The notes under the pieces: generated by a model
The model's database searches: none
The model's input: only the letters and a program-made list of their open reading frames with translations
Told to the model about the DNA's origin: nothing
Position numbers and translations under genes: made by a program
NCBI GenBank assembly: GCA_965207905.1
Contig: OZ242316.1
Span: forward strand, 4,163,848 to 4,227,847
From: Phototrophicaceae bacterium
GTDB taxonomy: Bacteria > Chloroflexota > Anaerolineae > Aggregatilineales > Phototrophicaceae
DNA length: 64,000 nucleotides
Direction of reading: 5' to 3'
In this document: in pieces, positions 13,060 through 44,983 of the stretch
How the letters are laid out: each line of letters begins with the position of its first letter
Numbering within the stretch: the stretch's first letter is position 1

Positions 13060-13075
13060 TTCAACCCTCGATGTT

Positions 13076-13088
13076 TCTCCATTGTAGA
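13076..13088. promoter_or_regulatory. Near-palindrome TCTCCATTGTAGA upstream of mazE copy 3 (same box as 12696-12708)
   Basis: It has one arm mismatch relative to the copy-2 palindrome and sits at the same distance from the start codon. Confidence 0.35.
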
Positions 13089-13221
13089 TACATGCTACCA
13101 TTGCTTTATCTTGCGCTGCAGAATAATGTGTCGCGCTCAGCGACAGTTGCTCGCGACCGGGCAATATATACGCTAAAATAGATTCATATTGTAAATACTT
13201 ATTGCTAGCGAGGCCCTAGAG

Positions 13222-17347: not shown

Positions 17348-18214
17348 ATGGCAAAACTAGGCGTCATCACCGACGGCATCAGCCGCGAATTCGAGCATGC
17401 GCTGTCGGTGATGAACGAATTCGACCTGACGCAAGCCGAGCTGCAATTCCTCTGGGATAAAGAAGTCGGCGACCTTTCGGACGCGCAGCTGAACCGCGTG
17501 CAGCAGCTTGTACATGCTCACGAAGTTGAGGTCTCCTGCATCTCCCGGCATGTCTTCGGCGGGCTAGCGCTGAGCGATATTTCGCCGACCGCGCCCGCCT
17601 ACCTGGCGCATCTGGACGCGTTGGGCCGCTGCATTGATATGGCGCAGGCGCTGGATTGTGGCCTGGTTCGCATCATGAGCTTCAAGAAAGAGATGATCCT
17701 CTTCGGCAGCCACGGCGCGGAAGAATGGAATGTGGCGAGCGGCGCCTGGGACAAGGCGCGGGAATTGATCGCCGGCGCCGTGCAAATTGCTGAAGACCGC
17801 GGCATCACGCTGGTGGTCGAAACCGGCAACAACGCCATCACCAACTCCGCCTTCCTGGCATGCAAGCTGATTGATGAGTTGGGCTCCGAGCGGTTGAAGC
17901 TGCTCTGGGATCCGGCCAACGCGCTGTATTCTACGGAAGTCGCTTACCCCGACGGCTATAGCGCGCTGCGCGGCGGTTACCTGGGGCATGTTCATCTAAA
18001 AGATGTGGTGGTGGACATTGCCCGAGCGACTGTGACTTGCCGCCAACTGGGCAGCGGGCAGATGGCGCCCTACCTTACAGACTTGGCGACCGCCCTGGCC
18101 GCCGACGGCTATGAAGGATCTATTTCGCTGGAATCGGTATATCGTCCGCTGGGCGGCACATTCGAGGACGGCTTCCGCGCTTCGGTGGGGGTATTGAAGG
18201 AGTTGTTTGGCTAG
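17348..18214 (+). CDS. Sugar phosphate isomerase/epimerase (TIM barrel)
   Basis: 288 aa with VVETGN, WDPANA, HVHLKD and SLESVY motifs. Confidence 0.8.
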   Translation: MAKLGVITDGISREFEHALSVMNEFDLTQAELQFLWDKEVGDLSDAQLNRVQQLVHAHEVEVSCISRHVFGGLALSDISPTAPAYLAHLDALGRCIDMAQALDCGLVRIMSFKKEMILFGSHGAEEWNVASGAWDKARELIAGAVQIAEDRGITLVVETGNNAITNSAFLACKLIDELGSERLKLLWDPANALYSTEVAYPDGYSALRGGYLGHVHLKDVVVDIARATVTCRQLGSGQMAPYLTDLATALAADGYEGSISLESVYRPLGGTFEDGFRASVGVLKELFG

Positions 18215-18265
18215 TCTAGCTCGCCTCCATCTACTGCACATAGTCAAATCTTATATACTTAGCGT

Positions 18266-20521
18266 GTGAGCACCGAACAGAAATCGCGTATGCGCGCTTG
18301 GATTAGCCTGCGTTGGCGGCAGGGCCGCCTCCCCCTGCTGCTGTACCTGATCACTTTCATCGTGATGACCTACCCGTTATTCTTCCGTATGCACGACTCG
18401 CTGCCGATGGACAATCCCGACACTCATACGGCGCTCTGGCAGAATTGGTGGATTCGGGAATCGCTCCTGGAAGGCAAGGCCGTAAGCCATAGCGAGTTGC
18501 TCTTCCATCCATCGGGCTTGGACGTCAGCTTACAGCCGCGCCGCTGGACGACGTTTCCGCTTTGGACCGCGCTTTACTCGATATTTGGCGATCCGCTGGC
18601 TTTCAATCTGGTTGCGACGATTGGCATCTTGTTCAAAGCCTATGGCATGTACTTGTTCGGCTTGACGCTGTTCAAACGACGGATTCCCGCCTGGGTTTGC
18701 GGCGGATTCTATGCATTTGCCGCGCCGGCCTTAGCGCATGCCTTGCAGCAGCCGAACACTGGAGCGACCGAGTGGATTCCTTGGTTTATGCTGGCTTTTG
18801 CTTCGGGCTTGGCGCTCAGCAGAGAATCAGACAACCCTCGTCGATGCCTTGCAGTTATGGTGCTGGCAGGCCTGCTCTTTTCCCTTAATGCGTACAACAA
18901 TCGAAAGATAGGCATATTTGCAATGCTGCTTGGTGGCAGTTACCTCCTCTGCCAAGCAATCATATATCGGTTATGGCGGCGGCAACGGTTTTGGCTGTCA
19001 ACAGCGGCTTTTGCCGGGTCTGCAATCGTCTTTACTGCGCCGCTTCTGGTCAGCTCGCTGTCATCCGACGGGCTTCAACACGCTATTCAAATGAGTTTTC
19101 CCCAAAATGCATACAACAGCGTAGATCTCTTATCGTACGTCAAAGCGGACTACTCGAAACCTTTGCTTTACATGCAAAGCATAGCCAGTCTCGACGGCTC
19201 GCAGTTGCCTGTTGGAGTTGCGGCGAGGGATTTGTTGCACTTGGGCGTCGTCAGCATCGCCTTCGCGTTTTCGGGCGCACTGTACACCCTGAGAGTTTAC
19301 CGCAAAGCGATCACATGGCTGCTTATCGCCCTTGTGTTTTGGCTGCTGAGTTTTGGCACGCAGGTCTATCTCGCGGGCGAATTGCTTGAAGGCATCGGTT
19401 GGACGCCATTCCGCCTAGTGGAAAACATCGTGTTTTTCAGGGTGCTGCGCGAGCCCTGGCGCATGACATTTGTGTGGTTATTCGCCTATTCTGTGCTCAT
19501 CGGCTACGGACTGGACTGCAAACTGCGGTCAATTGAACTTGATCGCCAGCAGACAATATTGCTTGTTGTCTCCGTGCTTATTCTGTTCTACGGTACCAGC
19601 CTATTCCCAATTCCCGTTCGAGCAGCGCAGCGCCCACATTATGTTTCAGCGTTAGCCGGCTTGCCGGAAGGCGCAGTTATTGATGCGCCCTTGGGTCGCC
19701 AAGAGTCCAAATACTACATGTCCGTGCAGCGCTTCCATCGTCGGCCGATTGTCGAAGGCATGATTGCGCGTATGCCCCCCGACGCATACGACTACATCGA
19801 CTCGAATCTGCTGCTGACTAGCCTAAAAGATCCGTGGGGGCTATCGACCGCTTCTGTCTCAGGCGAGAAGTGGCGAGCTGCTATTGAGTCGCTAAAGCAA
19901 GACGGCTTCCGCTACCTGATACTGCATGAACGCGTCCCCGTATCGCACTCAATTCGCGCCAGCCTCCCCGACTCCATCGCCGATGACCTCGCCGCCTGGC
20001 CCGCCGTTTATCAAGACGAAGACGTCCGCATCTATGATCTCAGGCACTGGGACGGGGCAATTCCGGTAGCTTTCAGGGGCGGATTCACTCACCTGCCTGA
20101 CGATGGTGGCATCAGCATCAACATCGGCGAGAATTTTACCATGCACAGCTGGTTCTTGCTCGATTCCGTTGATGTGCGCCCTTGCCAAGCCGTAACGGTC
20201 GAAAGCTGGTGGTCAGTCGACGAAACTGACGCCGTCCCGCATTCGCTCCTGCTCATCCTGGCCGATTCGGACGGCGACGGCCAGCTGGCGCTCGTGGACA
20301 AAGCGCCGGCGGACCGGTTTACGACTGAGTGGCATGAAGGCGTCTACTACAGAGACCAAAGCGCCATCACGATTCCCTGCGCGATAGCCAATGGCAATTA
20401 TCCGCTGCTGCTGGGATTGAAGGAGTCAATGAGCGGTGCATCCTTGCCTATTCTTCATGCGGATGGCAGCCCAGGTGGCTCGCATTACTACCTCACCACT
20501 CTCAAGGTCGCCGGGGACTAG
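18266..20521 (+). CDS. Large polytopic membrane protein with a soluble C-terminal domain (possibly glycosyltransferase-C-like; function uncertain)
   Basis: 751 aa with a GTG start. There are more than 10 hydrophobic segments in the first ~470 aa, followed by a ~280-aa hydrophilic tail. I found no motif I can name. Confidence 0.6.
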
Positions 20522-20604
20522 TCCCACCGTTTGAGAAGCGGGTAGTCTTGAGTATACTTGTGCGGCAAGCGCAGTTCGGCAACTCAGTTCAGAAAGGTCT
20601 CACG

Positions 20605-24672: not shown

Positions 24673-24760
24673 TTATCTCCTATTTTCGACATAATGCGAC
24701 AATACTGGCACAGTCCAGGATCGTATTCAAGGTTTGCGAATAATCGGCATGTATGAAGGT

Positions 24761-24792
24761 TTTTTACCACAGAGACACAGAGACACAGAGAA
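24761..24792. repeat. CACAGAG-family repeat, left-end type (TTTTTACCACAGAGACACAGAGACACAGAGAA)
   Basis: 24773-24792 is the exact reverse complement of 25201-25220. 24761-24774 is the exact reverse complement of 26737-26750. Confidence 0.9.
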
Positions 24793-24815
24793 TTGAGGGG
24801 AGTTCGCTTCAAGAA

Positions 24816-25196
24816 ATGAGCCCAACTGATACACGTGACCCATTAACATACAGAATTATCGGCGCCGCCATAGAAGTACATCAGATCTTGGGAGCAGGAC
24901 TACTTGAAAACATTTATGAGGACGCGCTGTGTATCGAATTGGCAGAGCGCGGGCTCAGTTTCGAGCGTCAGAAACACCTTGAAATCAATTACAAGGGCCA
25001 TGATATTGGTGATCTTTTTGTAGATATCATTGTCGAGGATCGAGTGATCGTAGAATTGAAGTCGGTAAGAGAACTGGCGCCGATCCATAAGGCTCAGTTG
25101 ATGACATACCTTCGTGTGTCGAACATGGGGTTGGGGCTGCTGATCAATTTCAATGTTCCAAACTTGACGCAAGGAATACAGAGAGTTGTGCTTTGA
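24816..25196 (+). CDS. GxxExxY protein (PD-(D/E)XK nuclease superfamily)
   Basis: The ORF track starts at 24753 inside the repeat (HRDTETQR). The likely start is MSPTDTRDPLTYRIIGAAIEVHQILGAGLLENIYEDAL; the GxxExxY motif is GLLENIY, followed by VELKSV. Confidence 0.85.
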   Translation: MSPTDTRDPLTYRIIGAAIEVHQILGAGLLENIYEDALCIELAERGLSFERQKHLEINYKGHDIGDLFVDIIVEDRVIVELKSVRELAPIHKAQLMTYLRVSNMGLGLLINFNVPNLTQGIQRVVL

Positions 25197-25200
25197 GCAT

Positions 25201-25238
25201 TTCTCTGTGTCTCTGTGTCTACTTTCACAACCCCTCAA
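25201..25238. repeat. CACAGAG-family repeat, inverted copy (TTCTCTGTGTCTCTGTGTCT ... CCCCTCAA)
   Basis: It forms a perfect 20-bp inverted repeat with 24773-24792. CCCCTCAA (25231-25238) is complementary to TTGAGGGG (24793-24800). Confidence 0.9.
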
Positions 25239-25447
25239 TGAATCAAAGCAGAAACTAGCACAACTTGCAGTTTTTTTGTAGAATTTTGGTGCGGTGCGCG
25301 ATCCCCGTGTGTCTTTGGCAGAAAGTATGCCCTACAGAGTTTGGGACGGAGGCGAACTGACGAGCCGCTTGGCACTTAATTGATGCCCAAAAGTAGAGTA
25401 GGTCTTAGAACCTCAAAGCGCCTCTGCACCGCGGTATTACTGGCTCA
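25239..25447 (+). ncRNA. Possible IS110 bridge-RNA-encoding non-coding end (hypothesis)
   Basis: A ~200-nt ORF-free segment lies directly upstream of the IS110 recombinase gene. That is where IS110-group elements are reported to encode a structured guide (bridge) RNA. I did not verify any structure here. Confidence 0.3.
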
Positions 25448-26677
25448 ATGGTACAACCTACGAAACATAACCGCGTTCGCATCTCGCAAGGCGATTTCGC
25501 TGTAGCGGGTCGCTATGATTGCACAGCAGGTTGCGATGTAGACGCAGACTATGTCGTTGTCTCGCTTTTGAACTTCAAATCACAGACAAACGAAATTCGG
25601 CAAATACCTCAGACTCAGGCAAAAGCGAATGCAGCTGCAAAGTGGCTCAAACAGAACAAAGTAGAGTTCATAGTTCTAGAATCGACCGCAAATTATCATT
25701 TGACTTTTTATCACGCTTGCCGAAAACTTGGTCTGAATGTACACATCATCAATCCCGCTCAAGTCACGGCGCTACTTCGAATAGAGGGCAAGTCGGATAA
25801 GGCGGATGCGACAAATCTAGCCATGCTAGCCGCTACTTTTCCCCTAAGAACTTCCAATGTTCCAGATGCCCAACAAATAGAGATTCGTAGCAACTTGCGG
25901 AATTATGACCGCGACAGAAAAGCATTAACTAAAGTTAAGCAACGGGTTCATCAAGAACTTGCGCAGTTTGGAATAAATATCTTCCGGGAAACTACGTTGA
26001 GAACCCAATCAGGCCGGGCGTTTCTGGAAGCGCTTTCTCAGACAGAGGACGCGGCGGAAATGATTGTTCAGAATCACTGGAAAGGTTCACCTAGCAGCCG
26101 CCCAAGATTGATAGAGGCAATGGGGAAGACGGAAGAACTCCCAACTTGGCTTCGTCAGGAACTTGAAGTGCTAAGAATTGACCTACTTGTTCAAGAGCAA
26201 AGAATTAGAAACCGAGAACAACAAGCGCTAAATCATATCGAACATTTTGAGCTAGCGCCTCAGATCGCTTGGATGTCCACGACACCAGGAGTAAACTGGC
26301 TCGTAGCTTTACGACTAATTGGTGAAATGGGATCGGACTTTTGGCAACGATATTCAACATCAAGAGCCTGGTGTAAGGCTTTAGGGGTCGCCCCGAACAC
26401 TCTTGTTTCTGCCGGGAAAGTCCTTAAAACCTCGAAAGCCTTAGGAAATAATCATGCCAAGCGACATCTCCTCATGCAAATGCGTAATTGGTTATTGCGA
26501 AACCATGAGCACCCATTGAAACAGTGGCAAGTACAATATAGAGCTAAAGCAGGCTTTCGCAAATCAGTATCCGCGTGCTGCAATAAAGCCATGACCAGTT
26601 TATATCATCAAGGCCGGCACGGCGGTTTACCGTATAATCCGAGTCGGATGAAGTTACGATTCCCTGAAACTATCTAG
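25448..26677 (+). CDS. IS110 family transposase (DEDD recombinase)
   Basis: 409 aa. VEFIVLESTANYHLTFYHACRKLGLNVHIINPAQV...KSDKADATNLA is the typical N-terminal DEDD_Tnp_IS110 region. The C-terminal Transposase_20-like region includes PGVNWLVALRLIGEMG. Confidence 0.9.
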   Translation: MVQPTKHNRVRISQGDFAVAGRYDCTAGCDVDADYVVVSLLNFKSQTNEIRQIPQTQAKANAAAKWLKQNKVEFIVLESTANYHLTFYHACRKLGLNVHIINPAQVTALLRIEGKSDKADATNLAMLAATFPLRTSNVPDAQQIEIRSNLRNYDRDRKALTKVKQRVHQELAQFGINIFRETTLRTQSGRAFLEALSQTEDAAEMIVQNHWKGSPSSRPRLIEAMGKTEELPTWLRQELEVLRIDLLVQEQRIRNREQQALNHIEHFELAPQIAWMSTTPGVNWLVALRLIGEMGSDFWQRYSTSRAWCKALGVAPNTLVSAGKVLKTSKALGNNHAKRHLLMQMRNWLLRNHEHPLKQWQVQYRAKAGFRKSVSACCNKAMTSLYHQGRHGGLPYNPSRMKLRFPETI

Positions 26678-26736
26678 ACGCACGCATTCGCGACATGGTT
26701 GTGTTTTTGTGGCTGCCCCGAATTACGGGCGAGCAA

Positions 26737-27948: not shown

Positions 27949-28935
27949 ATGATCAGCAGAGGGCGCTCCCGCCGGACGACCATCATCACCGTCTACGTTA
28001 TGGTGGTCGTCCTGCTCTTTCTCGGGCGGCAGTTGGCGGCGCCGATGGTCTCACCCGTCCGCGAAACGGTCAATGACGCGCTGATCTTCATCTCGGACAC
28101 CGACTCGATCGACGCCGGGCGCGACTCTAATTCGGTTTACCGCATCGGGCTGGACGGGCGCGGATTGAAACGCATCGCCGGCTCCATATCGCATGGCGAG
28201 GGCTACCTGCGCACAACAGACATCGATTGTCACCCGGCGTCGCAGCAGCTGGTTATCGCCAGCCATCGGCGCGATCTAAACGGCTTCCACCACGCCCTGC
28301 TCGATGGCTCCGGGCTGCATCTGGACAAGCCGGCTACCGGAGACATGCTGTCTGCTACGCGGCAAATCGCCATAGCACCGGACGGCAGGGGCATCGTCGT
28401 CTCGCGCCAATTCGAAGACTTTGAAGAACCGCGCTTCGGCCTGGTCGCCGGCGATCTGATTAACCGCGATTTCGACATTGTCAAAGCGCCAACCTTGGAT
28501 CAGTCGTATATCTCGCCGAGCTTTTCACCCTCTGGGCGCCTGCTCGCCTACATCGTCAAGCGCTATGATGCTGCTGCCAGCTGGACCTCCCGGCTGGTCA
28601 TCGCCGTTCCCGCCGGGCGTACGGAGTGGGTCATCGCCGAGACGCGCCTGCAGATAAGCGATATAGACTGGTCGCCGACGGGCGAGTGGCTGGCGCTGGT
28701 GGCGGATGGGCAAATCTACCGCATTCACGGCACAGGCGGAGAGTTCACGCGGCTGACCGACCACCTCGGCGGCGCGACCTCGCCGCGCTGGTCGCCGGAT
28801 GGCGGGCGGATCAGCTACGTGACGGCTTCGACCTTCCCCGGCGTTCAGCAGATCATGATCATGAATGCCGATGGCTCGGGCAAGCGCCAAGTGACCACAA
28901 TCCGCGGCGATGTGACGAATGGCTGCTGGGTGTGA
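27949..28935 (+). CDS. TolB-like PD40/WD40 beta-propeller repeat protein, membrane-anchored or secreted
   Basis: 328 aa. An N-terminal hydrophobic segment is followed by PD40-type repeats (SPSFSPSGRLLAYIV, DWSPTGEWLALV, SPRWSPDGGRISYV). It ends ...IRGDVTNGCWV. Confidence 0.75.
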   Translation: MISRGRSRRTTIITVYVMVVVLLFLGRQLAAPMVSPVRETVNDALIFISDTDSIDAGRDSNSVYRIGLDGRGLKRIAGSISHGEGYLRTTDIDCHPASQQLVIASHRRDLNGFHHALLDGSGLHLDKPATGDMLSATRQIAIAPDGRGIVVSRQFEDFEEPRFGLVAGDLINRDFDIVKAPTLDQSYISPSFSPSGRLLAYIVKRYDAAASWTSRLVIAVPAGRTEWVIAETRLQISDIDWSPTGEWLALVADGQIYRIHGTGGEFTRLTDHLGGATSPRWSPDGGRISYVTASTFPGVQQIMIMNADGSGKRQVTTIRGDVTNGCWV

Positions 28936-28936
28936 G
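28900..28936. repeat. 37-bp direct repeat DR1 (the 3-prime end of the PD40 gene)
   Basis: atccgcggcgatgtgacgaatggctgctgggtgtgag matches 30061-30097 at 34 of 37 positions. Confidence 0.9.
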
Positions 28937-28964
28937 ATTGTCGAGTCCCTTGCTTGGGCCCGCC

Positions 28965-29369
28965 TTATTCGACTTCCCAATCTTCGACGTTCAAGCCGGG
29001 AATCCGCTCAAACTCGCTGATGTTATGTGTAACTACGATTAATCCCCTGGCGCGAGCAATGGCGGCTATCAGCATGTCGTGTTTGCCAATAGGAGAGCCG
29101 CGCTTTTCCAGAAAAGCGCGAATGCCGCCATACTCTTCCGCGGCGTCGTCATCAAAGGGTATACTTTCGAATTGCCGCAGAAAGTCGTCTTGTTTGGCGC
29201 GCGAACGTTCCGGCGTCTGACTCTTGCTGGAACCATAATACATTTCGCCCTTCGTAATCGCGCTTATGACGATGTCTGAAGAGGACTTGCTGTTAACTTG
29301 ATCGCGAACGCGGGGTGCTCTGCCATTGATATAATTTATGCAAGCATTGGTATCAAGCAAGTATTTCAT
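28965..29369 (-). CDS. vapC: PIN-domain toxin VapC
   Basis: 134 aa with MKYLLDTNACINYI...ISAITKGEMYYG...HDMLIAAIARARGLIVVTHNISEF, which includes the PIN acidic residues. Confidence 0.9.
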   Translation of the reverse strand: MKYLLDTNACINYINGRAPRVRDQVNSKSSSDIVISAITKGEMYYGSSKSQTPERSRAKQDDFLRQFESIPFDDDAAEEYGGIRAFLEKRGSPIGKHDMLIAAIARARGLIVVTHNISEFERIPGLNVEDWEVE

Positions 29370-30043
29370 TCACGCCGATCTTCATTCTCTACATATTCCG
29401 GCGGATGCCATTCAATCGGGTCGTCAGCCAGGCTGCCATAAGTCCGCTCGACGAAATCCGCCCAAGACATCTCGTGATCGTCTGTCGCGCCTTCCCGTCC
29501 CGCAGCGGGAATTGCTTCATGGTCGGTGGCTTCGATCGCCCTCAGCGTTGCCGCGAACGCGGGATTCTGCGTATCCGTAAAGCGTTCAAGGCAAGCGTCG
29601 TCCCGAAATAGCGCCCCGTCGGGCAGGATGGCGCCTGCGAAATCAGCATCGACAACGTCTGCGTCAGCCAGCCGCGCTCCCAACAAGTTTGCCCGATGCA
29701 GATTCACATGAGTCAGATTCGCTCCCTCCAGGCAGGCAAAACGCAAGTCCGCCATACCCAAGTTTGCTCGGCGCAGGTCTGCGCTATTGAGACTTGCGCC
29801 ATACAGGCGCGCTTGCCTCAAATTTGCGCCTTGCAGGTCACTTTCGCGGAGATTTGCGCCATCAAGAACAGCTCCGGCCAAATTCGCCCGGCGCAGGCTG
29901 GCGCCCGCCAAGTTCGCGTCCCGCAAATCGGCGACCGGTGCATCCTCGTGGCGGTCACCAACCGCAATGGTCTGTTGCTGCGTGTTTATCACAATCAGTC
30001 TGCTCAGCGAATCTAGGCCATGTCGTTGAACTGAGTGTATCAC
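29366..30043 (-). CDS. Pentapeptide-repeat protein in the antitoxin position of the VapC module
   Basis: 225 aa with a GTG start. About 20 consecutive A(D/N)LxG-type pentapeptides are present (ANLAGASLRRANLAGAVLDGANLRESDLQGANLRQARLYGASL...). The C-terminal tail is MSWADFVERTYGSLADDPIEWHPPEYVENEDRRE. There is a 4-nt ATGA overlap with vapC. Confidence 0.75.
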   Translation of the reverse strand: MIHSVQRHGLDSLSRLIVINTQQQTIAVGDRHEDAPVADLRDANLAGASLRRANLAGAVLDGANLRESDLQGANLRQARLYGASLNSADLRRANLGMADLRFACLEGANLTHVNLHRANLLGARLADADVVDADFAGAILPDGALFRDDACLERFTDTQNPAFAATLRAIEATDHEAIPAAGREGATDDHEMSWADFVERTYGSLADDPIEWHPPEYVENEDRRE

Positions 30044-30060
30044 AGGTGGATTACGATTTC

Positions 30061-30097
30061 ATCCGCGGCGCAGTGACGAATGGCTGTTGGGTGTGAG
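30061..30097. repeat. 37-bp direct repeat DR2 (orphan copy of the PD40 gene 3-prime end)
   Basis: atccgcggcgcagtgacgaatggctgttgggtgtgag encodes IRGAVTNGCWV-stop, with no gene body in front of it. Confidence 0.9.
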
Positions 30098-30101
30098 TCG
30101 C

Positions 30102-31286
30102 CTAGCGCGTGGAGCGGCTCAGCTTGCGCGGCGCGAACAGGCCCCAGATGAGGACCGTGCCAGTCGCCAGTAGGGCGCTGAGCAAGAGCAGCGTTGAGGC
30201 ATAACCCAGCGCGGCTATCGCCAGGCCGCCCAGCACCGGGCCGGCCACCTTGCCGAAATTCTGCAGCATGCCGATCAAACCCATGCCCGCGCCCAGGTGC
30301 TCGGCGCTGATGCGATTCGACACCAGCGCTTTCGCCGCCGGGAAGATCAGCGCTTGAGCCAGGCCCATCAGCGCCGCCGGCAGCAGGAAGAGCGCTCCCT
30401 GATCCAGTAGGCGAACCAGGGGCAGCGATAGCGCCAGAATCAGCATGCCCAGGCTGATGCTCGACAGGTAGCCCCAGCGATCGCCCAGCCGGCCGCAAAA
30501 GGGCTTGCAGAGCACGTGCACGGCTTCGTTCAAGCTGAAGAAGAGGCCGATCAGCGCCACGCTGACGCCCGCCTCCAGCGCGAAGATGGGCAGGAAGGCT
30601 TTGAGCGTGTAGAGCGCGATAAAGGTGACGGCTTCCAAAGCGCCGGTCAGCCAGACGGCTGAGGTCCGCCCGCCATCGCGGATCGCGCTGATGATATGCT
30701 GCCAAACGGGCATGCGCTTGCGTTTTGTAACCGCTCGCGGTTCGGGCAAGCTCAATACCGGCAGGAATACGCCGCAGCTGATGACGCCGATGATGGTGAA
30801 GACCGTCGCTGGGTCAAAGGAGAGCAGCAGCCAGCCGGCCAGCAGAGGGCCAAATACATAGCCGCCGCTGCGCGCCATCTCGAACCAGCCGATGTCTTCG
30901 GCTACACTTTCGCCTTTGGCCAGCTCGGCGATAAAAGCCAGCGTCACCGGGCCGTAAATCGCTGTCGCCAAGCCGTGTGCCAGCCGGATGACGAGCAGCT
31001 GTTCCGGCGTCTGGATGAAGCGGTACAAGAAGGGCATGAAGGCGAAAAAGCAGGCGCCAATCAGCAGCCAGACGCGCCGCCCCCAGCGGTCGGACAAAAT
31101 GCCGAAGAGTGGCTTGAGGAAGAGCCCGGTAACGGTCGATACGGTGACGATCAAGCCCAGGAATGCGCCCGATGCCCCCAAAGCCGCGGCGAAAATGGGC
31201 AGCAGCGGCGTCTTGCCCATCTGATAGGCGGAGCGCGCGATGAAGTCCGCCAGCATGAGATTGAGGAAGGGTCTAGAGCGTTTCAT
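30102..31286 (-). CDS. MFS transporter
   Basis: 394 aa with about 12 TM segments and the loop motif GILSDRWGRR between TM2 and TM3. Confidence 0.85.
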   Translation of the reverse strand: MKRSRPFLNLMLADFIARSAYQMGKTPLLPIFAAALGASGAFLGLIVTVSTVTGLFLKPLFGILSDRWGRRVWLLIGACFFAFMPFLYRFIQTPEQLLVIRLAHGLATAIYGPVTLAFIAELAKGESVAEDIGWFEMARSGGYVFGPLLAGWLLLSFDPATVFTIIGVISCGVFLPVLSLPEPRAVTKRKRMPVWQHIISAIRDGGRTSAVWLTGALEAVTFIALYTLKAFLPIFALEAGVSVALIGLFFSLNEAVHVLCKPFCGRLGDRWGYLSSISLGMLILALSLPLVRLLDQGALFLLPAALMGLAQALIFPAAKALVSNRISAEHLGAGMGLIGMLQNFGKVAGPVLGGLAIAALGYASTLLLLSALLATGTVLIWGLFAPRKLSRSTR

Positions 31287-34896: not shown

Positions 34897-35871
34897 TTAC
34901 TGCATAGCGCGTTCTTTCCAGCGAACCGGCCCTAACTCTATCGGCAATGCACGAACAATTTCGTACAAACCGTCAAGATCATGCTGGATATCTTTCCAGA
35001 CGTACGGCTTAAGTAGGGCCGGTATCTCGGCCGATTCGGAAAACTTAAGCGCAATGATGGCGAACTTTTCTCCATACTCTCTCTTACGGCTCTTAGCATA
35101 GTTGATCTCGTCAGCCAAGATTCGTTCGTCTTTGAAGTCTTCTGTGATGAAGAAAACGACGGCACAACTTTCAGAGATTCCCCCGAAAATCCCTCTGTCG
35201 AGTTCCATTCCAGCATACATAGCGGGATCATCTAGCCACGGGTCGAAGCCCAATTGTTTGAGAACTTTGTGATATTTCTTTACTAGTTGTTTGTTTTCGG
35301 ATTTGTGACTTAGGAATATCCTTGTTTCATTCGTAGCCGGAATTCTTTCGATGGGAACAGCCTGCAATTCACGCGCTTCTTGAGATGGCATACCGATCGC
35401 TGCCTCCATTCTATCTCCCAAACTTAGGCAGAACGGCCTCACGACCAGCGAAAGAAAAAGTGACTTGCTTCCATCCATATCGCTCCAACGTGTGCGGCGA
35501 TCCTGCAAGTCTATGAAGTTCTGATCATGTTGGTTTGCATAGCCGTGGAGCAACTGGTATTGGAAGCTAAACTCTTCGTCCGGGTCGTCGGGAAATATCC
35601 AGATGCTACCGGTCTCCTTATCGAGTTTATCGTATTCGCTGTTCAGCCACGTTGTGAATCGGGCGGGTCCAGCATTTCTCATCAGAGGCGCTATAACTGA
35701 TTGCGCGACAGGATCTCGCTCCAAGAAGTTCAGCAGCGGGTGAAAATGATGGTCGAACTGCTCTATATCCTCGTTTATCAGTGCGTCTCGTCGCCTTTTG
35801 AATTGTCGTAACGTGTTGATCTGGGCGTCTCGTGTTATTTCGCTCACTTGGTGTACCTCATAGCAATACAT
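34897..35871 (-). CDS. TIR-domain protein with an uncharacterised N-terminal domain
   Basis: 324 aa. Residues ~183-305 (nt 34957-35325) read RIFLSHKSENKQLVKKYHKVLKQLGFDPWLDDPAMYAGMELDRGIFGGISESCAVVFFITEDFKDERILADEINYA, a bacterial TIR_2-like pattern. I recognise no motif in the N-terminal 180 aa. Confidence 0.75.
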   Translation of the reverse strand: MYCYEVHQVSEITRDAQINTLRQFKRRRDALINEDIEQFDHHFHPLLNFLERDPVAQSVIAPLMRNAGPARFTTWLNSEYDKLDKETGSIWIFPDDPDEEFSFQYQLLHGYANQHDQNFIDLQDRRTRWSDMDGSKSLFLSLVVRPFCLSLGDRMEAAIGMPSQEARELQAVPIERIPATNETRIFLSHKSENKQLVKKYHKVLKQLGFDPWLDDPAMYAGMELDRGIFGGISESCAVVFFITEDFKDERILADEINYAKSRKREYGEKFAIIALKFSESAEIPALLKPYVWKDIQHDLDGLYEIVRALPIELGPVRWKERAMQ

Positions 35872-36415: not shown

Positions 36416-36604
36416 ATCGCGTGGTAGCTCGGATACCTCATCGGACGTAGTAGGTCTTGAGAACGGGCAAATGCTATACTATCGACGCCATTATATCAAT
36501 AGAATAATAGTAACTGTTACAACACTGCAGTGGGCGAATTGGGTAAATTGATGACCATGTACTCTGGCCTGCATTCGGGCAACCCGCTGGCCCATCCAGA
36601 CACT

Positions 36605-36689
36605 TTCTTTGTGCCCTTTGTGCCTTTGTGGTCAAAAAAACCAATCCCCTAACTCGGTGCCCTCGGTGTACTCGGTGGTAAAGAAAAAA
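36605..36689. repeat. CACAGAG-family repeat cluster, right-end orientation (two units ending GTGGTCAAAAAAA and GTGGTAAAGAAAAAA)
   Basis: ttctttgtgccctttgtgcctttgtggtcaaaaaaa ... ctcggtgccctcggtgtactcggtggtaaagaaaaaac. Confidence 0.85.
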
Positions 36690-36716
36690 CCCGCTTCAAC
36701 TTCGCCGCCAATGCAA

Positions 36717-36725
36717 TGGTATAAT
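36717..36725 (+). promoter_or_regulatory. Extended -10 promoter element TGGTATAAT upstream of vapB-like gene
   Basis: TGnTATAAT lies 24 nt upstream of ATG 36749, and the SD GGAGGA sits at 36735-36740. Confidence 0.45.
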
Positions 36726-36748
36726 CAGCCCAAGTGGAGGACCGACCC

Positions 36749-37024
36749 ATGACCATCGATATCGCGGAAGACGTCGCGCTGCGCCTTGAAGCGCTCGCAA
36801 AAGCAAAAGACGCCGACATCAGCGACTTGCTGCGCGACATGATCGAGAGCTACGAGGACAAGGGCGACGCCAAACAGAAGCGCTGGGCGACAGGTGCGGA
36901 CTTTGCCAGAAACGCCAAAGCCGCAGGGCTGGCATCGCCCGAGCCGGTGGATACTTCAGCGCGCAGCCGCGAGATTCTTAGCACAGAGTTCGCAGACTAC
37001 TTGATACGCCGCGCCAACCGATGA
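36749..37024 (+). CDS. Ribbon-helix-helix (CopG/VapB-like) antitoxin
   Basis: The ORF track starts at 36734; ATG 36749 follows GGAGGA. MTIDIAEDVALRLEALAKAKDADISDLLRDMIE has the RHH pattern. It overlaps the PIN gene by 4 nt. Confidence 0.75.
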   Translation: MTIDIAEDVALRLEALAKAKDADISDLLRDMIESYEDKGDAKQKRWATGADFARNAKAAGLASPEPVDTSARSREILSTEFADYLIRRANR

Positions 37025-37434
37025 CCTTCATCGCGGACAGCAACTTTGTCTATGCGCTGTACAACGCCAATGATATCCATCATCAAGACGGGATGAGTTT
37101 GCTGTCTCAAAACTCGGAAGTTATGCTCGTGCCTGATGTGGTCCTGCCAGAAGTCGGTTATCTCATTGCGCGCGACATTGGCCACAGCGGAATGCCAACT
37201 TTCCTAGAGCACTTTATGCAGTTAGATGTTCGGCTTGAAGCGGTTGGCATGGAAGACTTGGCAAGAGTTCGCGATATTGTAAGCACCTATGCGGACGCCC
37301 GATTCGACATCGTAGACTGCTGTATCATGGCTATCGCTGAACGCCTGAACATCACGAGAGTCGCGACTTTCGACCGGCGTGACTTTAATATATTTCGCCC
37401 GCGCCACTGCGATTATCTTGAATTGTTGCCCTAG
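37021..37434 (+). CDS. vapC: PIN-domain toxin VapC
   Basis: 137 aa with FIADSNFVYAL...VLPEVGYL...DIVDCCIMAIAERLNITRVATFDRRDF. Confidence 0.85.
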   Translation: MTFIADSNFVYALYNANDIHHQDGMSLLSQNSEVMLVPDVVLPEVGYLIARDIGHSGMPTFLEHFMQLDVRLEAVGMEDLARVRDIVSTYADARFDIVDCCIMAIAERLNITRVATFDRRDFNIFRPRHCDYLELLP

Positions 37435-37447
37435 CTTCGCCTCTACG

Positions 37448-37571
37448 TTTCTTTGTGCCTTCGTGCCTTCGTGCCTTTGTGATCCAAAACATACCCTCTG
37501 TGCCCTCTCATTAACTCTGTGCCCTCGGTGGCAAAAGAAAAACACCTCTGTGTCTCTGTGCCTCTGTGGCC
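37448..37571. repeat. CACAGAG-family repeat cluster, right-end orientation (3-4 units)
   Basis: tttctttgtgccttcgtgccttcgtgcctttgtgatcc ... ctctgtgccctcggtggcaaaagaaaaa ... cctctgtgtctctgtgcctctgtggcc. Confidence 0.85.
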
Positions 37572-40400: not shown

Positions 40401-41558
40401 TCAGGTCGTATAGACGACAATTTTGAAGTCTTTGGGATCAACAAGTTGCCAGATTGAACCTTTCATCTGTAACATTCCAGTTACTGAAACGGTCTCCCAT
40501 TTCATATGCGCCCTATCTGCCTCAAAATAGTCATGCTTGTTAAGACGCATGCTTACCTTTCGACTGCGCTTTCTGCCAACAGTCCAATCAACAATAATCG
40601 CCCGGTCCTCCACAGTCTCGCTCAACGGGTCACCTGACGAGCTTAAGGCGATCACTCGGCCCTTGATCGTAACTCTTTGCTGAGGAACGAATCTGAGATA
40701 TTCTATGGCACTTTCTAGATACTTGAGGTGTTCACGCCCAAGACGAACGCGGTCAAAGTCTCTAACATCTGATGATGGCGGAAGCGTCTGAGACCAAGTG
40801 ATTGATAGTTCGTAAGGCGAGCTCAAGATGTAAATCATGTCACGAATTGCTTCGCACATTCTGGAATTGAATCCTTGCCCGTATTCCTTCTTCAGAAGCT
40901 CTTCATCCCGACCACTGAGTGCCTTAGCAGTGGCCTGCAGTCCGCGCGCGATCCTCTCTAACACACGACGTTCTAATGGTAGAATCCGAAAGTCCTCCCC
41001 GGGCAATTGATGTTGCTCGCGCTTGCTAATGTAACGCTTCTCTTGCCCCACAAGAGATTCAATCAATAGGCCGAAACTCCCCTCAAAAGTCTGGCCAAAC
41101 CGGAAGTGCTGTATCATTTTCGAACCAGTCGATAGCGGTTGCTTGAAATGGGCTTTGGCGTTACGCTCGGAACTCGCGGAATACTGAATAAGTTTCTTCA
41201 CATACCTCACATACTTCGAAGCTACATCATAAGGCAATGACGCATTGCTAGCGTTCTCCATAATGCGAACACGAAGTAAGTCACGGTCATGATAGCGGAT
41301 ATCGTTCGCAGTTGATTCCATTGTCTTGCGCTGTAGGGAAGAAAGTATCCTTATGGCGTGCTGAACATGCACGCGATAGTCTTCTTCTACGACATCTTTT
41401 GGCAATGCGATTTCAAAGTGCTTGCCCGACTTGCTCATTCGACCGTGAAAGACACGCCAACGCTCATTGTCAACTACGCGTTTCCAGCCATTCACCTCTA
41501 GGTAGGATGTCATGCGAGGAATCGCAAGATCCAGTTCCGCGATTTCTTTGTCAACCAT
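40401..41558 (-). CDS. Hypothetical 385-aa protein (possible HEPN-like RNAKAH motif), partner of the DUF4365-like gene
   Basis: No family recognised. A single Rx4H motif sits in SSERNAKAHF (nt 41148-41165). It overlaps the upstream gene by 8 nt (ATGGTTGA). Confidence 0.6.
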   Translation of the reverse strand: MVDKEIAELDLAIPRMTSYLEVNGWKRVVDNERWRVFHGRMSKSGKHFEIALPKDVVEEDYRVHVQHAIRILSSLQRKTMESTANDIRYHDRDLLRVRIMENASNASLPYDVASKYVRYVKKLIQYSASSERNAKAHFKQPLSTGSKMIQHFRFGQTFEGSFGLLIESLVGQEKRYISKREQHQLPGEDFRILPLERRVLERIARGLQATAKALSGRDEELLKKEYGQGFNSRMCEAIRDMIYILSSPYELSITWSQTLPPSSDVRDFDRVRLGREHLKYLESAIEYLRFVPQQRVTIKGRVIALSSSGDPLSETVEDRAIIVDWTVGRKRSRKVSMRLNKHDYFEADRAHMKWETVSVTGMLQMKGSIWQLVDPKDFKIVVYTT

Positions 41559-42078
41559 TAGGTCTGTACTCCGCCGCTTCCTCGAGTATCTGGTTCACAG
41601 CTGCTTGGTCGAAGACATTGCTTATTGGTATGCATACGCGTTTCGTCTCCTTGTTTGGAGATTTTGCTCCCAGGAGGCGGGCCCAATAGCAGCAGTTTCT
41701 AAGACACATGCAATCTCTACTAATCAGCAACCACTCTTTCTGGTCCTTTGGCATCGCAAACAGTACAAAAGCAACATAAGAACGCTTCGGATGTACCAAC
41801 TTGTTATAGGCATCTACTTTCATATCAAACTTTACGTGTGTTGGATTCTCCGCGTTTGGATAGAAAATGCAATCGGTTGATGCCTTCAGTTGGCATCGAA
41901 CGGGAGGGCCCGAGTCAGTAAAGGTCCCATTGTCATCCATGATTGCGCTTAGTGTGACATCTGTCCCATAGTCACTCGTGCCATCTATCTGCGATAATGT
42001 GGCTCCCGCTTGCGCAACAACGGCTCGGACATACGATAACTGTAGGTCTTGCATGATGTGTGTAAGTGGTCTGGGCAT
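41551..42078 (-). CDS. DUF4365-like restriction-endonuclease-fold (PD-(D/E)xK) protein
   Basis: 175 aa. LQLSYVRAVVAQAGATLSQIDGTSDYGTDVTLSAI...PVRCQLKAST matches my recollection of the DUF4365 pattern (D-Y-G-x-D ... Q-x-K). Not verified by HMM. Confidence 0.5.
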   Translation of the reverse strand: MPRPLTHIMQDLQLSYVRAVVAQAGATLSQIDGTSDYGTDVTLSAIMDDNGTFTDSGPPVRCQLKASTDCIFYPNAENPTHVKFDMKVDAYNKLVHPKRSYVAFVLFAMPKDQKEWLLISRDCMCLRNCCYWARLLGAKSPNKETKRVCIPISNVFDQAAVNQILEEAAEYRPNG

Positions 42079-42440: not shown

Positions 42441-42495
42441 GTCGCCTCCTCGTGTTCACGCCCAGTATAAGGGGACTGCGTCAGCCTGTCAAAAT

Positions 42496-42549
42496 GCCTC
42501 TGTGCCCTCTGAGTGTCCTCGGTGTACTCTGTGGTGAAAAAAGAAAAGG
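42496..42549. repeat. CACAGAG-family repeat, right-end orientation (…CTCTGTGGTGAAAAAAGAAAAGG)
   Basis: gcctctgtgccctctgagtgtcctcggtgtactctgtggtgaaaaaagaaaagg lies immediately upstream of ATG 42557. Confidence 0.85.
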
Positions 42550-42556
42550 CAAACCC

Positions 42557-44275
42557 ATGTCCCAAACCGCCAAACGCAGCCAAGATTTCTTCAGCGCCGA
42601 GGGCGTCAGCGGCCTCATCCGCCGCGCCTTCACCGCCGCCTCGGGCTACGAAAGCGACGACATGTCCCGCCCGCTCATCGGCATCTGCAACACCTACAGC
42701 GAGCTCAACCATTGCAACAGCCACCTGCGCGCCGTCAGCGAAGCGGTCAAACGCGGCGTGCTGCAGGCCGGCGGCTTCCCGCTCGAATTCCCCACTATCT
42801 CGCTGGGCGAGGTCTACCTCAGCCCGACCTCCATGCTCTGCCGCAACCTGGCCGCCATGGACACCGAGGAGATGATCCGCGGCAATCCGCTCAGCGGCGT
42901 CGTGCTGCTGACCAACTGCGACAAGACCACGCCCGCCGCGCTGATGGGGGCCGCCAGCGCCGACCTGCCGACCATCATGGTCAGCGGCGGGCCCATGCTC
43001 AACGGCCACTTCCAGGGCGAAATCCTGGGCGCTTGCACCGATTGCCGCCGCTACTCGGCCGAGTACCAGGCGGGTACGATCAGCGCCGAGACCTACCAGG
43101 GCGTCGAGAAGAATCTGGTGCGCAGCGCCGGTCACTGCATGGTGATGGGCACGGCATCGACAATGAACTCGCTGATGGAGGCGCTGGGCATGGCGCTGCC
43201 AGGCAATGGCGCCATTCCCGCGTCAGACTCGCGCCGTCTGCAATTGGCGCAGGCGGCCGGGCGGCAGATCGTCCGCCTGGTCGAGGCCGATATCCGCCCC
43301 TCGCAGATCCTGACCGCCGCTGCCTTCGACAATGCCATCACGCTGCTGAACGCGGTCGGCGGCAGCACCAACGCCATCGTGCACCTGCCCGCGATCGCCG
43401 GCCGGGCCGGCGTCGACCTGCCGCTCTCGCGCTTTGACGAGATCAGCCGCCGCACGCCGCTGATCGCCAATATGCGCCCGACGGGCGACTACCAAATGGA
43501 AGACCTCTTCTACGCCGGCGGCATCCCGGCCGTGCTGAAAGAGCTGCTGCCCCTGCTGCACGGCGACGCCCTGACCGTGACCGGCCGGACCATGGCCGAA
43601 AATGTCGCTGACGCCGACATCAGCAATAGCGATATCATCCGCTCGCTGGACAACCCGCTGCAGCCGGAGGGTGGCTTGAGCATCTTGCGCGGCAACCTGG
43701 CGCCCGATGGCGCGGTCATCAAACACGCCGCCGCCACGCCCGCGCTCTGCAATCATCGCGGCCCTGCCCTCGTCTTCAAAGATGCCGCTGATGTTGCGGC
43801 GCGCATTCACGATCCCGCCCTGGACGTCACGCCCGATCACGTGCTGGTGCTGCAGAACGCCGGGCCCATCGGCGGCCCGGGCATGCCCGAAATCGGCAAC
43901 CTGCCCATCCCACAGAAGCTGCTGGAAGCGGGCGTGCGCGATATGGTTCGCATCTCCGACGCCCGCATGAGCGGCACGTCATACGGCGCCATCGTCCTGC
44001 ATGTCGCGCCGGAAGCTGCGCTGGGCGGGCCGCTGGCGCTCGTGCGTGATGGCGATGAGATCGAGCTGAATGTGGCCGAGCGGCGTTTGCAGCTGCACGT
44101 CTCCGAGGCCGAGCTGGCGCAGCGCCGGGCCGAGTGGTCGCCGCCCCCGCCGGCCTACTCGCGCGGTTACGGCCAACTCTACTTGCGCAGCGTCAACCAG
44201 GCGCCGCAGGGCTGCGACTTCGATTTCCTGCGCGGCAGCGACCCGGCCGGCCCCGTCTGGCAGCCGAAGTTTTAG
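42557..44275 (+). CDS. IlvD/Edd family dehydratase (dihydroxy-acid or sugar-acid dehydratase)
   Basis: The ORF track starts at 42431 inside the repeat. The likely start is MSQTAKRSQDFFSAEGVSG (42557). It has CNSHL, TNCDKTTP and MVMGTASTMN motifs. Whether it is IlvD proper or a sugar-acid dehydratase cannot be told from the sequence alone. Confidence 0.85.
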   Translation: MSQTAKRSQDFFSAEGVSGLIRRAFTAASGYESDDMSRPLIGICNTYSELNHCNSHLRAVSEAVKRGVLQAGGFPLEFPTISLGEVYLSPTSMLCRNLAAMDTEEMIRGNPLSGVVLLTNCDKTTPAALMGAASADLPTIMVSGGPMLNGHFQGEILGACTDCRRYSAEYQAGTISAETYQGVEKNLVRSAGHCMVMGTASTMNSLMEALGMALPGNGAIPASDSRRLQLAQAAGRQIVRLVEADIRPSQILTAAAFDNAITLLNAVGGSTNAIVHLPAIAGRAGVDLPLSRFDEISRRTPLIANMRPTGDYQMEDLFYAGGIPAVLKELLPLLHGDALTVTGRTMAENVADADISNSDIIRSLDNPLQPEGGLSILRGNLAPDGAVIKHAAATPALCNHRGPALVFKDAADVAARIHDPALDVTPDHVLVLQNAGPIGGPGMPEIGNLPIPQKLLEAGVRDMVRISDARMSGTSYGAIVLHVAPEAALGGPLALVRDGDEIELNVAERRLQLHVSEAELAQRRAEWSPPPPAYSRGYGQLYLRSVNQAPQGCDFDFLRGSDPAGPVWQPKF

Positions 44276-44844
44276 CTGGGGAAGAGGCGCTGCAAGTCCA
44301 GCGTGAAACCGGGCAAGACGTTCTCGCCGCTCACGCTGCCGTCTTGCGCGACAAACTCGCTGACGGGCTGTCCTTCGGCGTCCGCGCGCCACACCTCGAC
44401 GCCCGCCCGCTCCGGCAAAACGAGCCACACCAGTTCGGTTCCGTTTGCCAGGTAGACCGCGGCTTTGCGGCGCTGTTCAGTCAGCGTGTTGCTTGGGGAT
44501 GAGATTTCGACCGCCAAGTCCGGCATGCGGGGGACGAACTTTTCGTGTTCGTCATGCGGCGCAGCCTGCTTTCGCAGAAAGGCGACATCGGGCGCAAGCA
44601 GTGTCTGGCGATCATCGGCGGGATAATAGGCGGATTCGACAGTGCCTTCGCCCAAGTCATGCGCTTCGGCGTAGTTCAAAAGAAAGCGGAAGATATGTCC
44701 TGCAAGTCGTCCATGTCTGTATCCCGGCGCCATATCCCAGAACAGCTCCCCATCAATGAGATAATAATGCTTGAGTTCATTTTCCGGCAGCTGCGCAAGC
44801 CGCCAGACGTCGTCAACTGTGTAGAGCCGCTCCTGAATCGCCAT
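44272..44844 (-). CDS. Uma2 family (DUF820) PD-(D/E)xK endonuclease, copy 1
   Basis: The likely start is MAIQERLYTVDDVWRL (44844). PDVAFL...PDLAVEISSPSN...K...Y is the Uma2 core. Its stop overlaps the convergent dehydratase stop (44272-44275). Confidence 0.85.
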   Translation of the reverse strand: MAIQERLYTVDDVWRLAQLPENELKHYYLIDGELFWDMAPGYRHGRLAGHIFRFLLNYAEAHDLGEGTVESAYYPADDRQTLLAPDVAFLRKQAAPHDEHEKFVPRMPDLAVEISSPSNTLTEQRRKAAVYLANGTELVWLVLPERAGVEVWRADAEGQPVSEFVAQDGSVSGENVLPGFTLDLQRLFPS

Positions 44845-44983
44845 GCTTGCCTCGCGACAATCTCTGAGTAAAGACAATTATAGCGCAATCCTCGCCCCGT
44901 CGGCAGAAGGGTCGGGTGCGCCAATGCGGCATTCATTTCCTGCGCGGGCGCGACCCGGCCGGCCCCGTCTGGCAGCCGAAGTC

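Follow-up and report, generated by a model that had tools for sequence, protein, structure and literature searches.

Introduction

Insertions with long target duplication were described by Nobusato et al. (2000, Gene 259:99) and by Furuta, Abe & Kobayashi (2010, PMC2853133). The published members of this class are restriction-modification units that lie between unique duplications of more than 30 bp and carry no mobility genes (PMC2853133; PMC3874152). Some of the repeats overlap the 3' ends of genes, as in the 46-bp cases of H. influenzae, and DNA breakage by the cargo itself was proposed as the mechanism (PMC2853133). Here we describe a locus of similar anatomy in a Phototrophicaceae bacterium of the Chloroflexota (assembly GCA_965207905.1, contig OZ242316.1). 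It lies in a stretch of 64,000 nt (positions 4,163,848 to 4,227,847 of the forward strand) that we call the window, and coordinates below count from the first nucleotide of that stretch. A vapC toxin gene and a pentapeptide-repeat gene, together the cassette, are enclosed there by two copies of the 3' end of a PD40 beta-propeller gene; the copy that has lost its gene we call the relic. We favor, with moderate confidence, a history in which the cassette was inserted once, long ago, was then inherited together with its locus, was exchanged by homologous recombination, and was repeatedly lost by deletion between its repeats.

[quoted passage not shown] As in that class, the repeats exceed 30 bp (37 or 38 nt) and align to a single copy in a related insert-free genome, and the insert is small (the published criterion is less than 20 kb), lower in GC than its surroundings and free of any transposase or integrase. 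The class also calls for a repeat that is not dispersed; the present one has two copies in the window and, among 47 related loci, is confined to PD40 ends and relics. The cargo differs, being a VapC toxin-antitoxin pair instead of a restriction-modification unit, and we apply the class for its anatomy and mechanism. The published insertions are strain-specific, whereas this one is old, at the level of a family, and here the two copies exchange sequence and the cassette appears to have been lost cleanly and repeatedly.

Two other kinds of locus share part of this anatomy. In integrative and mobilizable elements (IMEs), cis-mobilizable elements (CIMEs) and islands at the 3' ends of genes and tRNAs, as here, direct repeats regenerate a 3' end, exact empty sites occur and no integrase need lie inside. 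Unlike CIMEs and IMEs, the cassette shows no sign of a cognate recombinase, of another integration site, of a free attachment site (attP) or of a fixed crossover, and it co-diverges with its locus. In arrays of Rhs, contact-dependent inhibition (CDI) and type VI secretion system (T6SS) genes, an incoming module likewise supplies a new gene end, and the resident 3' end is left further downstream as a non-coding orphan (PMC5361080). The orphan described here is only 38 nt long, however, the replaced end encodes the same peptide, and there is neither a polymorphic toxin domain nor any build-up of an array.

Results

A duplicated gene end encloses two genes

The direct repeat measures 37 nt (28900-28936 and 30061-30097), with 3 mismatches between its copies. 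The 37-mer has only these two matches across the window and none in 100 dinucleotide-preserving shuffles. Its left copy consists of the final 11 codons of the PD40 gene, the stop codon and one extra base (IRGDVTNGCWV-stop); a first reading of this DNA made without database searches, here called the sequence-only reading, had counted 12 codons plus stop. The right copy reads IRGAVTNGCWV-stop, with A for D, and no gene body stands ahead of it. This C-terminus, ...IRGxVxNGCW[VL], is common to more than 1,400 PD40 homologues. The window has a C at 30060 and an A at 28899, and because the C at 30060 matches the C that precedes the left copies of relatives, the repeat is 38 nt long in those relatives.

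Exactly two genes lie between the copies, a PIN-domain vapC and the pentapeptide-repeat gene, both on the minus strand and overlapping by 4 nt. The insert is 1,124 bp long, holds these two genes and no mobility gene, and sits where cassette-free relatives show a 5-nt gap between the convergent stops of PD40 and of a major facilitator superfamily (MFS) transporter gene. The recurrence of the 37-mer with 3 mismatches, the missing gene body, the two overlapping genes and the lack of an integrase had all been claimed by the sequence-only reading, and coordinates, shuffles and gene content bear them out. GC content is 48-53% in vapC as against 62-66% in the flanks, and the inner edges of the cassette end in ...GGATTACGATTT on the right and start with GATTGT... 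on the left. The pentapeptide gene probably starts at the GTG at 29992, which yields 208 aa, like all of its homologues (207-208 aa). A comparison of 22 loci revealed a -10-like motif of the TGTG type, 45-55 nt ahead of the start codon, which we infer may be a promoter element of the operon; a consensus promoter scan of the operon upstream region gave no match. The locus as a whole contains no tRNA, no Rfam family and no sigma-70 promoter or terminator consensus.

Empty sites identify the native gene end

A scan of species-representative genomes recovered 44 loci from metagenome-assembled genomes (MAGs) of Phototrophicaceae and Aggregatilineales, and the full set for comparison, with every genome entered a single time, numbers 47 loci; related loci and genomes that were compared with the window carry L numbers. 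The PIN and pentapeptide genes lie between PD40 and MFS in 22 of the 47 and are missing from the other 25, and five additional filled loci from close relatives bring the filled set to about 27. Pentapeptide homologues of about 207 aa share contigs with PD40 homologues wherever the contig could be checked, and L005 and L006 hold the same two genes with the same 38-nt repeat at both ends.

An empty junction, with the PD40 stop 5 nt from the MFS stop, had been predicted from the window and does occur. In L001, L002 and L003 the PD40 stop is followed by the 5 nt GTCGC and then by the MFS stop; each holds one repeat copy, and the aligned BLAST segments have 38 nt in common at the junction. The PD40 homologues of highest identity (92% and 89%) come from contigs with the empty junction, the exact 5-nt gap is present in 11 cassette-free species-level genomes, and the MFS flank of the window is 97-99% identical to that of L001 from 30061 onward. 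The single copy of the cassette-free relatives matches the right copy of the window and differs from its left copy at 3 positions. This identifies the right copy as the native end and the left copy as the one that carries variants, GAT and TGC.

These comparisons also bear on two simpler explanations, a common dispersed repeat and a full second PD40 paralogue that decayed in place, either of which the sequence-only reading had named as telling against a cassette. Neither turned up in the window or the related loci. That the right copy is the remnant of a decayed tandem paralogue, or a chance or dispersed repeat, has nothing for it but the repeat itself. The shuffles returned no match and the whole 64 kb only two copies, no second PD40 gene body or PD40-like sequence was found upstream of the relic in any of the about 27 filled loci, and what comes after the relic, the 5-nt spacer and then the MFS stop, is exactly as in the empty sites. 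We regard this explanation as refuted by the shuffles and by the filled-locus and empty-site comparisons, and give it practically no credence.

A relic, intact or decayed, is present in the window and in L005, L009, L135-L138, L017, L019, L024 and L028, and in every case 5 nt and then the MFS stop come after it. In the clades that keep it, the empty sites show the exact 5-nt gap (11 genomes). In the clade where no relic is detectable, the cassette occupies 12 of the 18 loci of the flank tree (13 of 19 if L134 is included), and the cassette-free loci have irregular gaps of 11, 34, 55, 130 or 390 nt or another insert (L036, 1137 nt); irregular gaps or different inserts at the junction occur mostly in the deepest clade. 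Our search for decayed relics in relic-free loci retrieved only a common ...GATG boundary and an equal distance to the -10-like motif. In the window's clade and in L017, L019 and L028 the relic begins at one and the same CAT[CT] position, with an alignable inner flank, and the relics of L017, L019 and L028 share a 1-nt deletion. The common start position and the alignable inner flank in two deep clades would argue that the junction arose only once.

An origin by homology-facilitated illegitimate recombination must be weighed here. A relic-free donor, with PD40, its end and the cassette, would have recombined within PD40 and joined illegitimately 38 nt upstream of the recipient's stop, orphaning the recipient's end. 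The native-like right copy and the variant left copy of the window are what such a join would leave; the relic stands in place of a conserved TGTACA -35-like element of the relic-free loci, which would fit a cut through the cassette promoter at that point; and the orphaned 3' ends of Rhs, CDI and T6SS arrays have been explained in this way (PMC5361080). However, two deep clades agree in the position of the junction and have similar inner flanks, which argues for one event, not recurrent joins, and the inner end of the relic lies 14-15 nt from the -10-like motif in both classes of locus, suggesting collinearity. Both copies of a second duplication at this gene end, in L041 (described below), carry lineage-specific bases, which also speaks against such joins. 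We judge this origin to be very unlikely.

Several loci depart from these patterns. The relics of L017 and L019 have lost their stop and read on to ...DTxPSV-stop, ending 5 nt before the MFS stop, and in the cassette-free L022 and L048 the same extended ...DTxPSV-stop ending is the working PD40 C-terminus; such an end would be expected if the cassette had been lost by recombination into a mutated relic. The PIN gene of L043 (about 7246-8435) is interrupted by an IS3-family element. In L037 the pentapeptide and PD40 genes are frameshifted and a gene for a pectate-lyase-like adhesin lies between the pentapeptide gene and MFS, and in L134 PD40 is split. These three loci show signs of cassette decay in some lineages.

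The cassette co-diverges with its flanks

Distances between pentapeptide proteins correlate with those between PD40 proteins (Spearman 0.79) and MFS proteins (0.78), nearly as the two flanks correlate with each other (0.85). Bootstrapped neighbor-joining trees of the cassette and of the flanks agree on the main splits, with three well-supported conflicts that group L028 with L017, L032 with L041 and L015 with L037; these suggest allele exchange. Cassette DNA of the window is 94% identical to that of L005 and 88-90% identical to that of L009, values that those of the flanks bracket. Because the cassette has diverged from L005 and L009 as far as its flanks have, it predates that sub-clade, and the empty L001 and L002, which are nested within the sub-clade and keep the local GTCGC, are best read as secondary losses. 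More generally, precise loss or allele replacement accounts for nested cassette-free relatives better than a site that was never occupied.

The region is a mosaic of tracts of high and low identity. Between the window and L135 or L136, for example, the cassette is 94% identical and the right flank 99.5-99.8% identical from the relic onward. This pattern fits homologous recombination among relatives, with exchange tracts that stop at heterology.

In all 22 filled species the third-position GC content (GC3) is about 0.54 and 0.57 in the PIN and pentapeptide genes as against 0.74 and 0.79 in PD40 and MFS. That this offset is stable despite long residence indicates that the cassette genes have not drifted towards the base composition of the host.

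The repeat copies exchange sequence

We compared three variants, GAT/GCA, AAT/AAC and TGC/TGT, among seven close filled genomes. In the window, L137 and L138 it is the left copy that has GAT, and in L135 the right copy; the left copy of L136 is a recombinant (GCA...TGC), and in L005 the two copies are identical and have two variants in common. This shows recombination between the repeats, as variants found on the left in some strains stand on the right in another. A fixed crossover in an identical core would partition variants consistently between attL and attR; instead, GAT is found in either copy.

No segment of the locus has diverged less than the relic. Among six close filled genomes (the window, L005, L009 and L136-L138) it shows a p-distance of 0.047, as against 0.10 and 0.17 in adjacent non-coding DNA, 0.070 in the coding left copy and 0.066-0.088 in the coding DNA nearby. 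The low divergence of the relic may stem from gene conversion, from overwriting by cassette-free relatives, or from a function upstream of the operon promoter.

Over 300 nt on the left, the empty L001 and the filled L135 do not differ at all (100% identity); over 600 nt on the right they are 98.7-99% identical. Their near-identity indicates that a precise gain or loss at the repeats was very recent. The copy variants gave no answer as to its direction, and no one-step model fits.

It is possible, though unlikely, that the cassette cycles without a recombinase. Host recombination would free a 1.16-kb circle, and this circle, or transforming DNA, would re-enter empty PD40 ends by a Campbell-type single crossover. 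Variable crossovers within 38 nt of homology would be expected to shuffle GAT/GCA, AAT/AAC and TGC/TGT as seen here. The filled contig L135 and the empty genome L002 stem from one sample, L135 and L001 are near-isogenic, and the three supported conflicts between cassette and flank trees point the same way. Yet no single-step model of excision and re-entry yields the copy pairs of L135 or L136, and 38 nt of homology is about the least that RecA needs to recombine efficiently. A circle unable to replicate would not last long, the tree conflicts are explained more simply if alleles were replaced through the long flanks of homology, and the about 27 filled loci include no tandem cassette arrays.

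No tyrosine or serine recombinase was found among the scanned genes

Neither the insert nor the scanned open reading frames (ORFs) of the window encode a tyrosine or serine recombinase; the scan took in the locus, its neighbors and all low-GC3 ORFs and left out the high-GC3 core genes. The only recombinase that Pfam found among the scanned ORFs is an IS110 DEDD transposase (25448-26677). We rejected this element as a mobilizer, as the match between its region and the site goes no further than an 8-mer, as expected by chance, and the element is missing from filled relatives.

The PD40 end has been duplicated at more than one length: 38 nt by the cassette, 26 nt in L041 and 8 nt in L004. In L041 an AT-rich 401-aa ORF without a Pfam or PADLOC match lies between PD40 and PIN (insert about 6952-8379), flanked by 26-nt duplicates of the PD40 end at 6926-6951 and 8380-8405. 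A lineage-specific GGA codon is common to both copies, which points to a duplication derived from the target; this PD40 end has thus received a separate insertion in another species. In L004/L007 (8979-10523) an insert of about 1.5 kb with a 449-aa fn3-domain gene occupies the PD40/MFS junction, and its 8-nt duplication GGGTCTAA preserves the would-be overlapping stops of PD40 and MFS. A transposase with a fixed stagger is rejected on these lengths and on the lack of obvious terminal inverted repeats by eye. Among the indels that separate the window from L001, L002 and L004, only that of the cassette has overlapping (repeat) junctions.

Nor was the element found elsewhere. No cassette was found at sites other than PD40/MFS; a degenerate 36-base version of the repeat had no match, and hence no attP-like copy, among viral contigs; and a metagenome scan with a pentapeptide profile returned 80 generic pentapeptide loci, none with the C-terminal tail described below, PIN, PD40 or MFS. 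Thus two defining features of att-flanked elements, a fixed crossover and an element or attP elsewhere, were looked for and not found.

We therefore consider it quite unlikely that the locus is a trans-mobilized integrative cassette, in which the 38-mer would be an att site, the recombinase would be encoded elsewhere and the filled loci would be repeated gains, as with CIME-type elements. Direct repeats at a gene 3' end that is regenerated, exact empty sites, a near-isogenic pair of filled and empty loci and the lower GC of the insert all agree with such an element, as does the second, different insert in L041, where the end is also duplicated. However, the cassette is seen at one locus only and largely co-diverges with it, no recombinase other than IS110 was found among the scanned ORFs and no attP-like copy in the viral collection, the duplications differ in length (38, 26 and 8 nt) and that of L041 is target-derived, and the variants fall on either side of any single crossover point.

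The sequence-only reading had proposed an integrative cassette that targets a gene terminus. Its observation, a duplicated gene end around two genes, is confirmed, and the interpretation is partly supported: a true target duplication regenerates the PD40 end, exact empty sites exist and the insert has no integrase. The part without support is mobility. The element was found at one locus only, its phylogeny largely follows the flanks, and no tRNA, attP-like copy or fixed crossover was found, nor any tyrosine or serine recombinase among the scanned ORFs. The cassette does not appear to be a hopping element, and it shows no behavior of an element that moves and targets sites.

The cassette encodes a VapC toxin and a pentapeptide-repeat partner

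The toxin scores 158.7 bits against the NCBIfam equivalog NF047863 (cut-off 140), matches the Salmonella/Shigella VapC structures 6ifc and 3tnd in PDB with E of about 1e-30, and has the acidic PIN residues D6, E42 and D98, as read from its sequence. On these grounds we assign it to the tRNA(fMet)-type VapC toxins. The gene in the antitoxin position lies directly upstream with its 4-nt overlap, and pentapeptide and PIN genes are adjacent in every filled locus checked.

The 208-aa protein comprises a pentapeptide beta-helix at about residues 20-150, then a disordered linker and a VapB-like C-terminal tail, SWADFVERTYGSLADDPIEWHPPE. AlphaFold2 predicts a right-handed beta-solenoid over residues 20-150, with a predicted local distance difference test score (pLDDT) above 90, and a helical tail of low confidence; Foldseek matches to the predicted beta-helix include 2g0y, with a target-normalized TM-score of 0.76. 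The tail is the best-conserved region of the protein. It is identical at 17 of 27 positions (E 1e-7) to the tail of a conventional 80-aa antitoxin (...GWPLGFFDRTYGALADDPIERPPE...) that precedes a VapC of 64% identity in another Anaerolineae MAG. The tail alone had no match in Pfam, PADLOC or PDB, and the homology surfaced only against this conventional partner antitoxin, which was fetched by its context. An N-terminal DNA-binding domain (AbrB/SpoVT, ribbon-helix-helix, Phd or helix-turn-helix) was not found, and the N-terminal 150 residues are taken up by the pentapeptide beta-helix.

The pair is thus most likely a VapBC-type module in which the DNA-binding domain of the antitoxin has been exchanged for a pentapeptide beta-helix, and the 208-aa protein may act like an antitoxin though it is not a classical VapB. 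It resembles the tRNA(fMet)-cleaving VapBC systems (Shigella and Salmonella, 3tnd and 6ifc; Leptospira VapC, NF047863) in passing the equivalog cut-off, in its upstream partner with a 4-nt overlap and in its homologous tail. It differs from conventional VapBC in that the N-terminal DNA-binding domain, which in the conventional partner is AbrB-like by eye and has no Pfam match, is replaced by a pentapeptide beta-helix of about 130 residues. With the pentapeptide-repeat proteins Np275/276, HetL, MfpA and Qnr it shares the predicted right-handed beta-solenoid, but those have no toxin-binding tail or PIN partner, and its similarity to the gyrase-binding Qnr and MfpA is far below family cut-offs. 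No antitoxin that combines a pentapeptide beta-helix with a VapB tail was found in Pfam, PADLOC, PDB or a literature search.

It is tempting to speculate that the cassette is a minimal mobile unit without a mobility gene, excised by host recombination at its 38-nt repeats, re-entering at the empty PD40 ends of related strains and retained by a VapC whose antitoxin has swapped its DNA-binding domain for a DNA-mimicking beta-helix. We think this rather unlikely. If true, toxin release would be coupled to some cellular partner other than operator DNA.

Features of the locus and other insertions in the window

The features of the locus are collected in Table 1.

Table 1. Features of the cassette locus in window coordinates
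Feature	Position	Strand	Basis or remark
PD40/Tricorn_N-type beta-propeller gene, 328 aa	27949..28935	+	Pfam PD40; last 11 codons and stop inside left repeat
Left repeat copy, working PD40 3' end, variants GAT and TGC	28900..28936	+	Repeat comparison
28-nt spacer from PD40 stop to vapC stop, left inner edge	28937..28964	.	Aligns with L005 and L006, not with empty sites
vapC, PIN toxin of the tRNA(fMet)-specific endonuclease family, 134 aa	28965..29369	-	Pfam PIN 1.3e-15
Putative antitoxin, pentapeptide-repeat, 208 aa from GTG 29992	29366..29992	-	Pfam Pentapeptide; ORF could reach 30043
Operon upstream region, right inner edge; TGTGATACACT extended -10-like motif at about 30034-30044	29993..30059	-	Comparison of 22 loci
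Right repeat copy, orphan non-coding PD40-end relic	30060..30097	+	Identical or nearly so to the cassette-free single copy
Original 5-nt spacer GTCGC, after the relic	30097..30101	.	Same 5 nt in empty L001 and L002 and filled L005
Convergent MFS transporter gene, 394 aa, right flank	30102..31286	-	Pfam MFS_1 3.4e-50

A second islet in the window has a 43-nt direct repeat of 88% identity (8375-8417 and 9103-9145) around an insert at 8418-9102. Its left copy encodes near-N-terminal residues (..DKLAQIHIGKKGAA..) of a 398-aa gene at 7246-8442(-), its right copy lies behind an orphaned ATG (MQPDKLAQIHIGMRGAAS...stop), and its content is a 118-aa coiled-coil/membrane ORF at 8627-8983(-) with a 33-nt tandem repeat. 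This islet, too, has the look of an insertion with long target duplication, here of a gene start.

Other accessory segments are more varied. A low-GC insert (about 45%) at 24782-26736, between the aldolase and Fe-type alcohol dehydrogenase (Fe-ADH) genes, holds a PDDEXK_3 gene (24753-25196) and the IS110-family transposase (25448-26677). The same spot holds a ParE-like pair in L002 and a pair of an N6/N4 methyltransferase and an SfiI-like restriction gene in L004, L005, L006 and L137, a pattern that marks the spot as a hot spot for selfish modules. A 2.4-kb segment (18213-20604) with a 751-aa ORF (18266-20521) that has no Pfam match is missing from L001, L002 and L004 and has no junction repeat. 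A second PIN toxin (37021-37434) and a small upstream ORF, a pair spanning 36697-37434, are flanked by short CTTTGTGCC/CTCTGTGCC-type repeats, each with an A-run after it (36600-36690 and 37450-37570), that recur at 42490-42545; its PIN gene is missing in L002. Further low-GC3 islets (34897-35871, 41551-42078, 9206-10555, 12790-13164, 44213-45676 and 51403-52648) contain a TIR_2 protein, DUF4365, a T5orf172 protein, a MazE-like antitoxin and four Uma2-family nuclease genes, two of which are a 712-nt tandem duplication of 94-97% identity.

Discussion

The history that we favor can be laid out as follows. A single old insertion with long target duplication would have placed the operon 37-38 nt upstream of the PD40 stop with no mobility gene. 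The locus would afterwards have been inherited vertically, with alleles swapped between relatives through homologous recombination in PD40 and MFS, while recombination or replication slippage between the copies would repeatedly have removed the cassette and left an intact 5-nt junction. The relic may have been kept from decay by recombination with cassette-free relatives, in which a working PD40 end pairs with the relic, and by gene conversion between the copies. Toxin-antitoxin addiction probably slows the loss of the cassette. The alternatives of cycling, of a trans-acting recombinase and of illegitimate recombination overlap in part with this history, as regards either the origin of the cassette or its maintenance.

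Several points weigh against the history of one insertion and repeated loss. Detectable relics are missing from 16 filled loci, the relic-bearing cassettes are not monophyletic, and an ancestral relic-bearing form would follow from the shared junction position and a weak collinearity, with no clean phylogeny behind it. On the flank tree a few gains would be more parsimonious than at least seven losses in the window's clade, and the direction of single gains or losses cannot be polarized from sequence. The trees themselves are neighbor-joining trees of two short proteins each, drawn from MAG data in a visibly mosaic region. The antitoxin role and the addiction effect are put forward from gene order and tail homology. 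Finally, this history supplies no mechanism for the original insertion, and the same holds for the published class.

The cargo nevertheless has a bearing on mechanism. As it is an RNase toxin unable to cut DNA, a host process is the more likely source of the duplication. The locus would extend the published class from restriction-modification units to toxin-antitoxin modules with an RNase toxin, which argues that the mechanism belongs to the host and not to DNA cutting by the cargo.

In summary, a pentapeptide-repeat protein with a VapB-like tail, of which we found no earlier description, is conserved in more than 20 species, and in the window its operon is bounded by a duplicated gene end. 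The locus can be read as a long time series, in which the two repeats trade sequence, loss of the cassette is clean wherever a relic persists, and fixation follows once the relic has disappeared. If this reading is right, the locus illustrates how an accessory locus may come and go without any recombinase.

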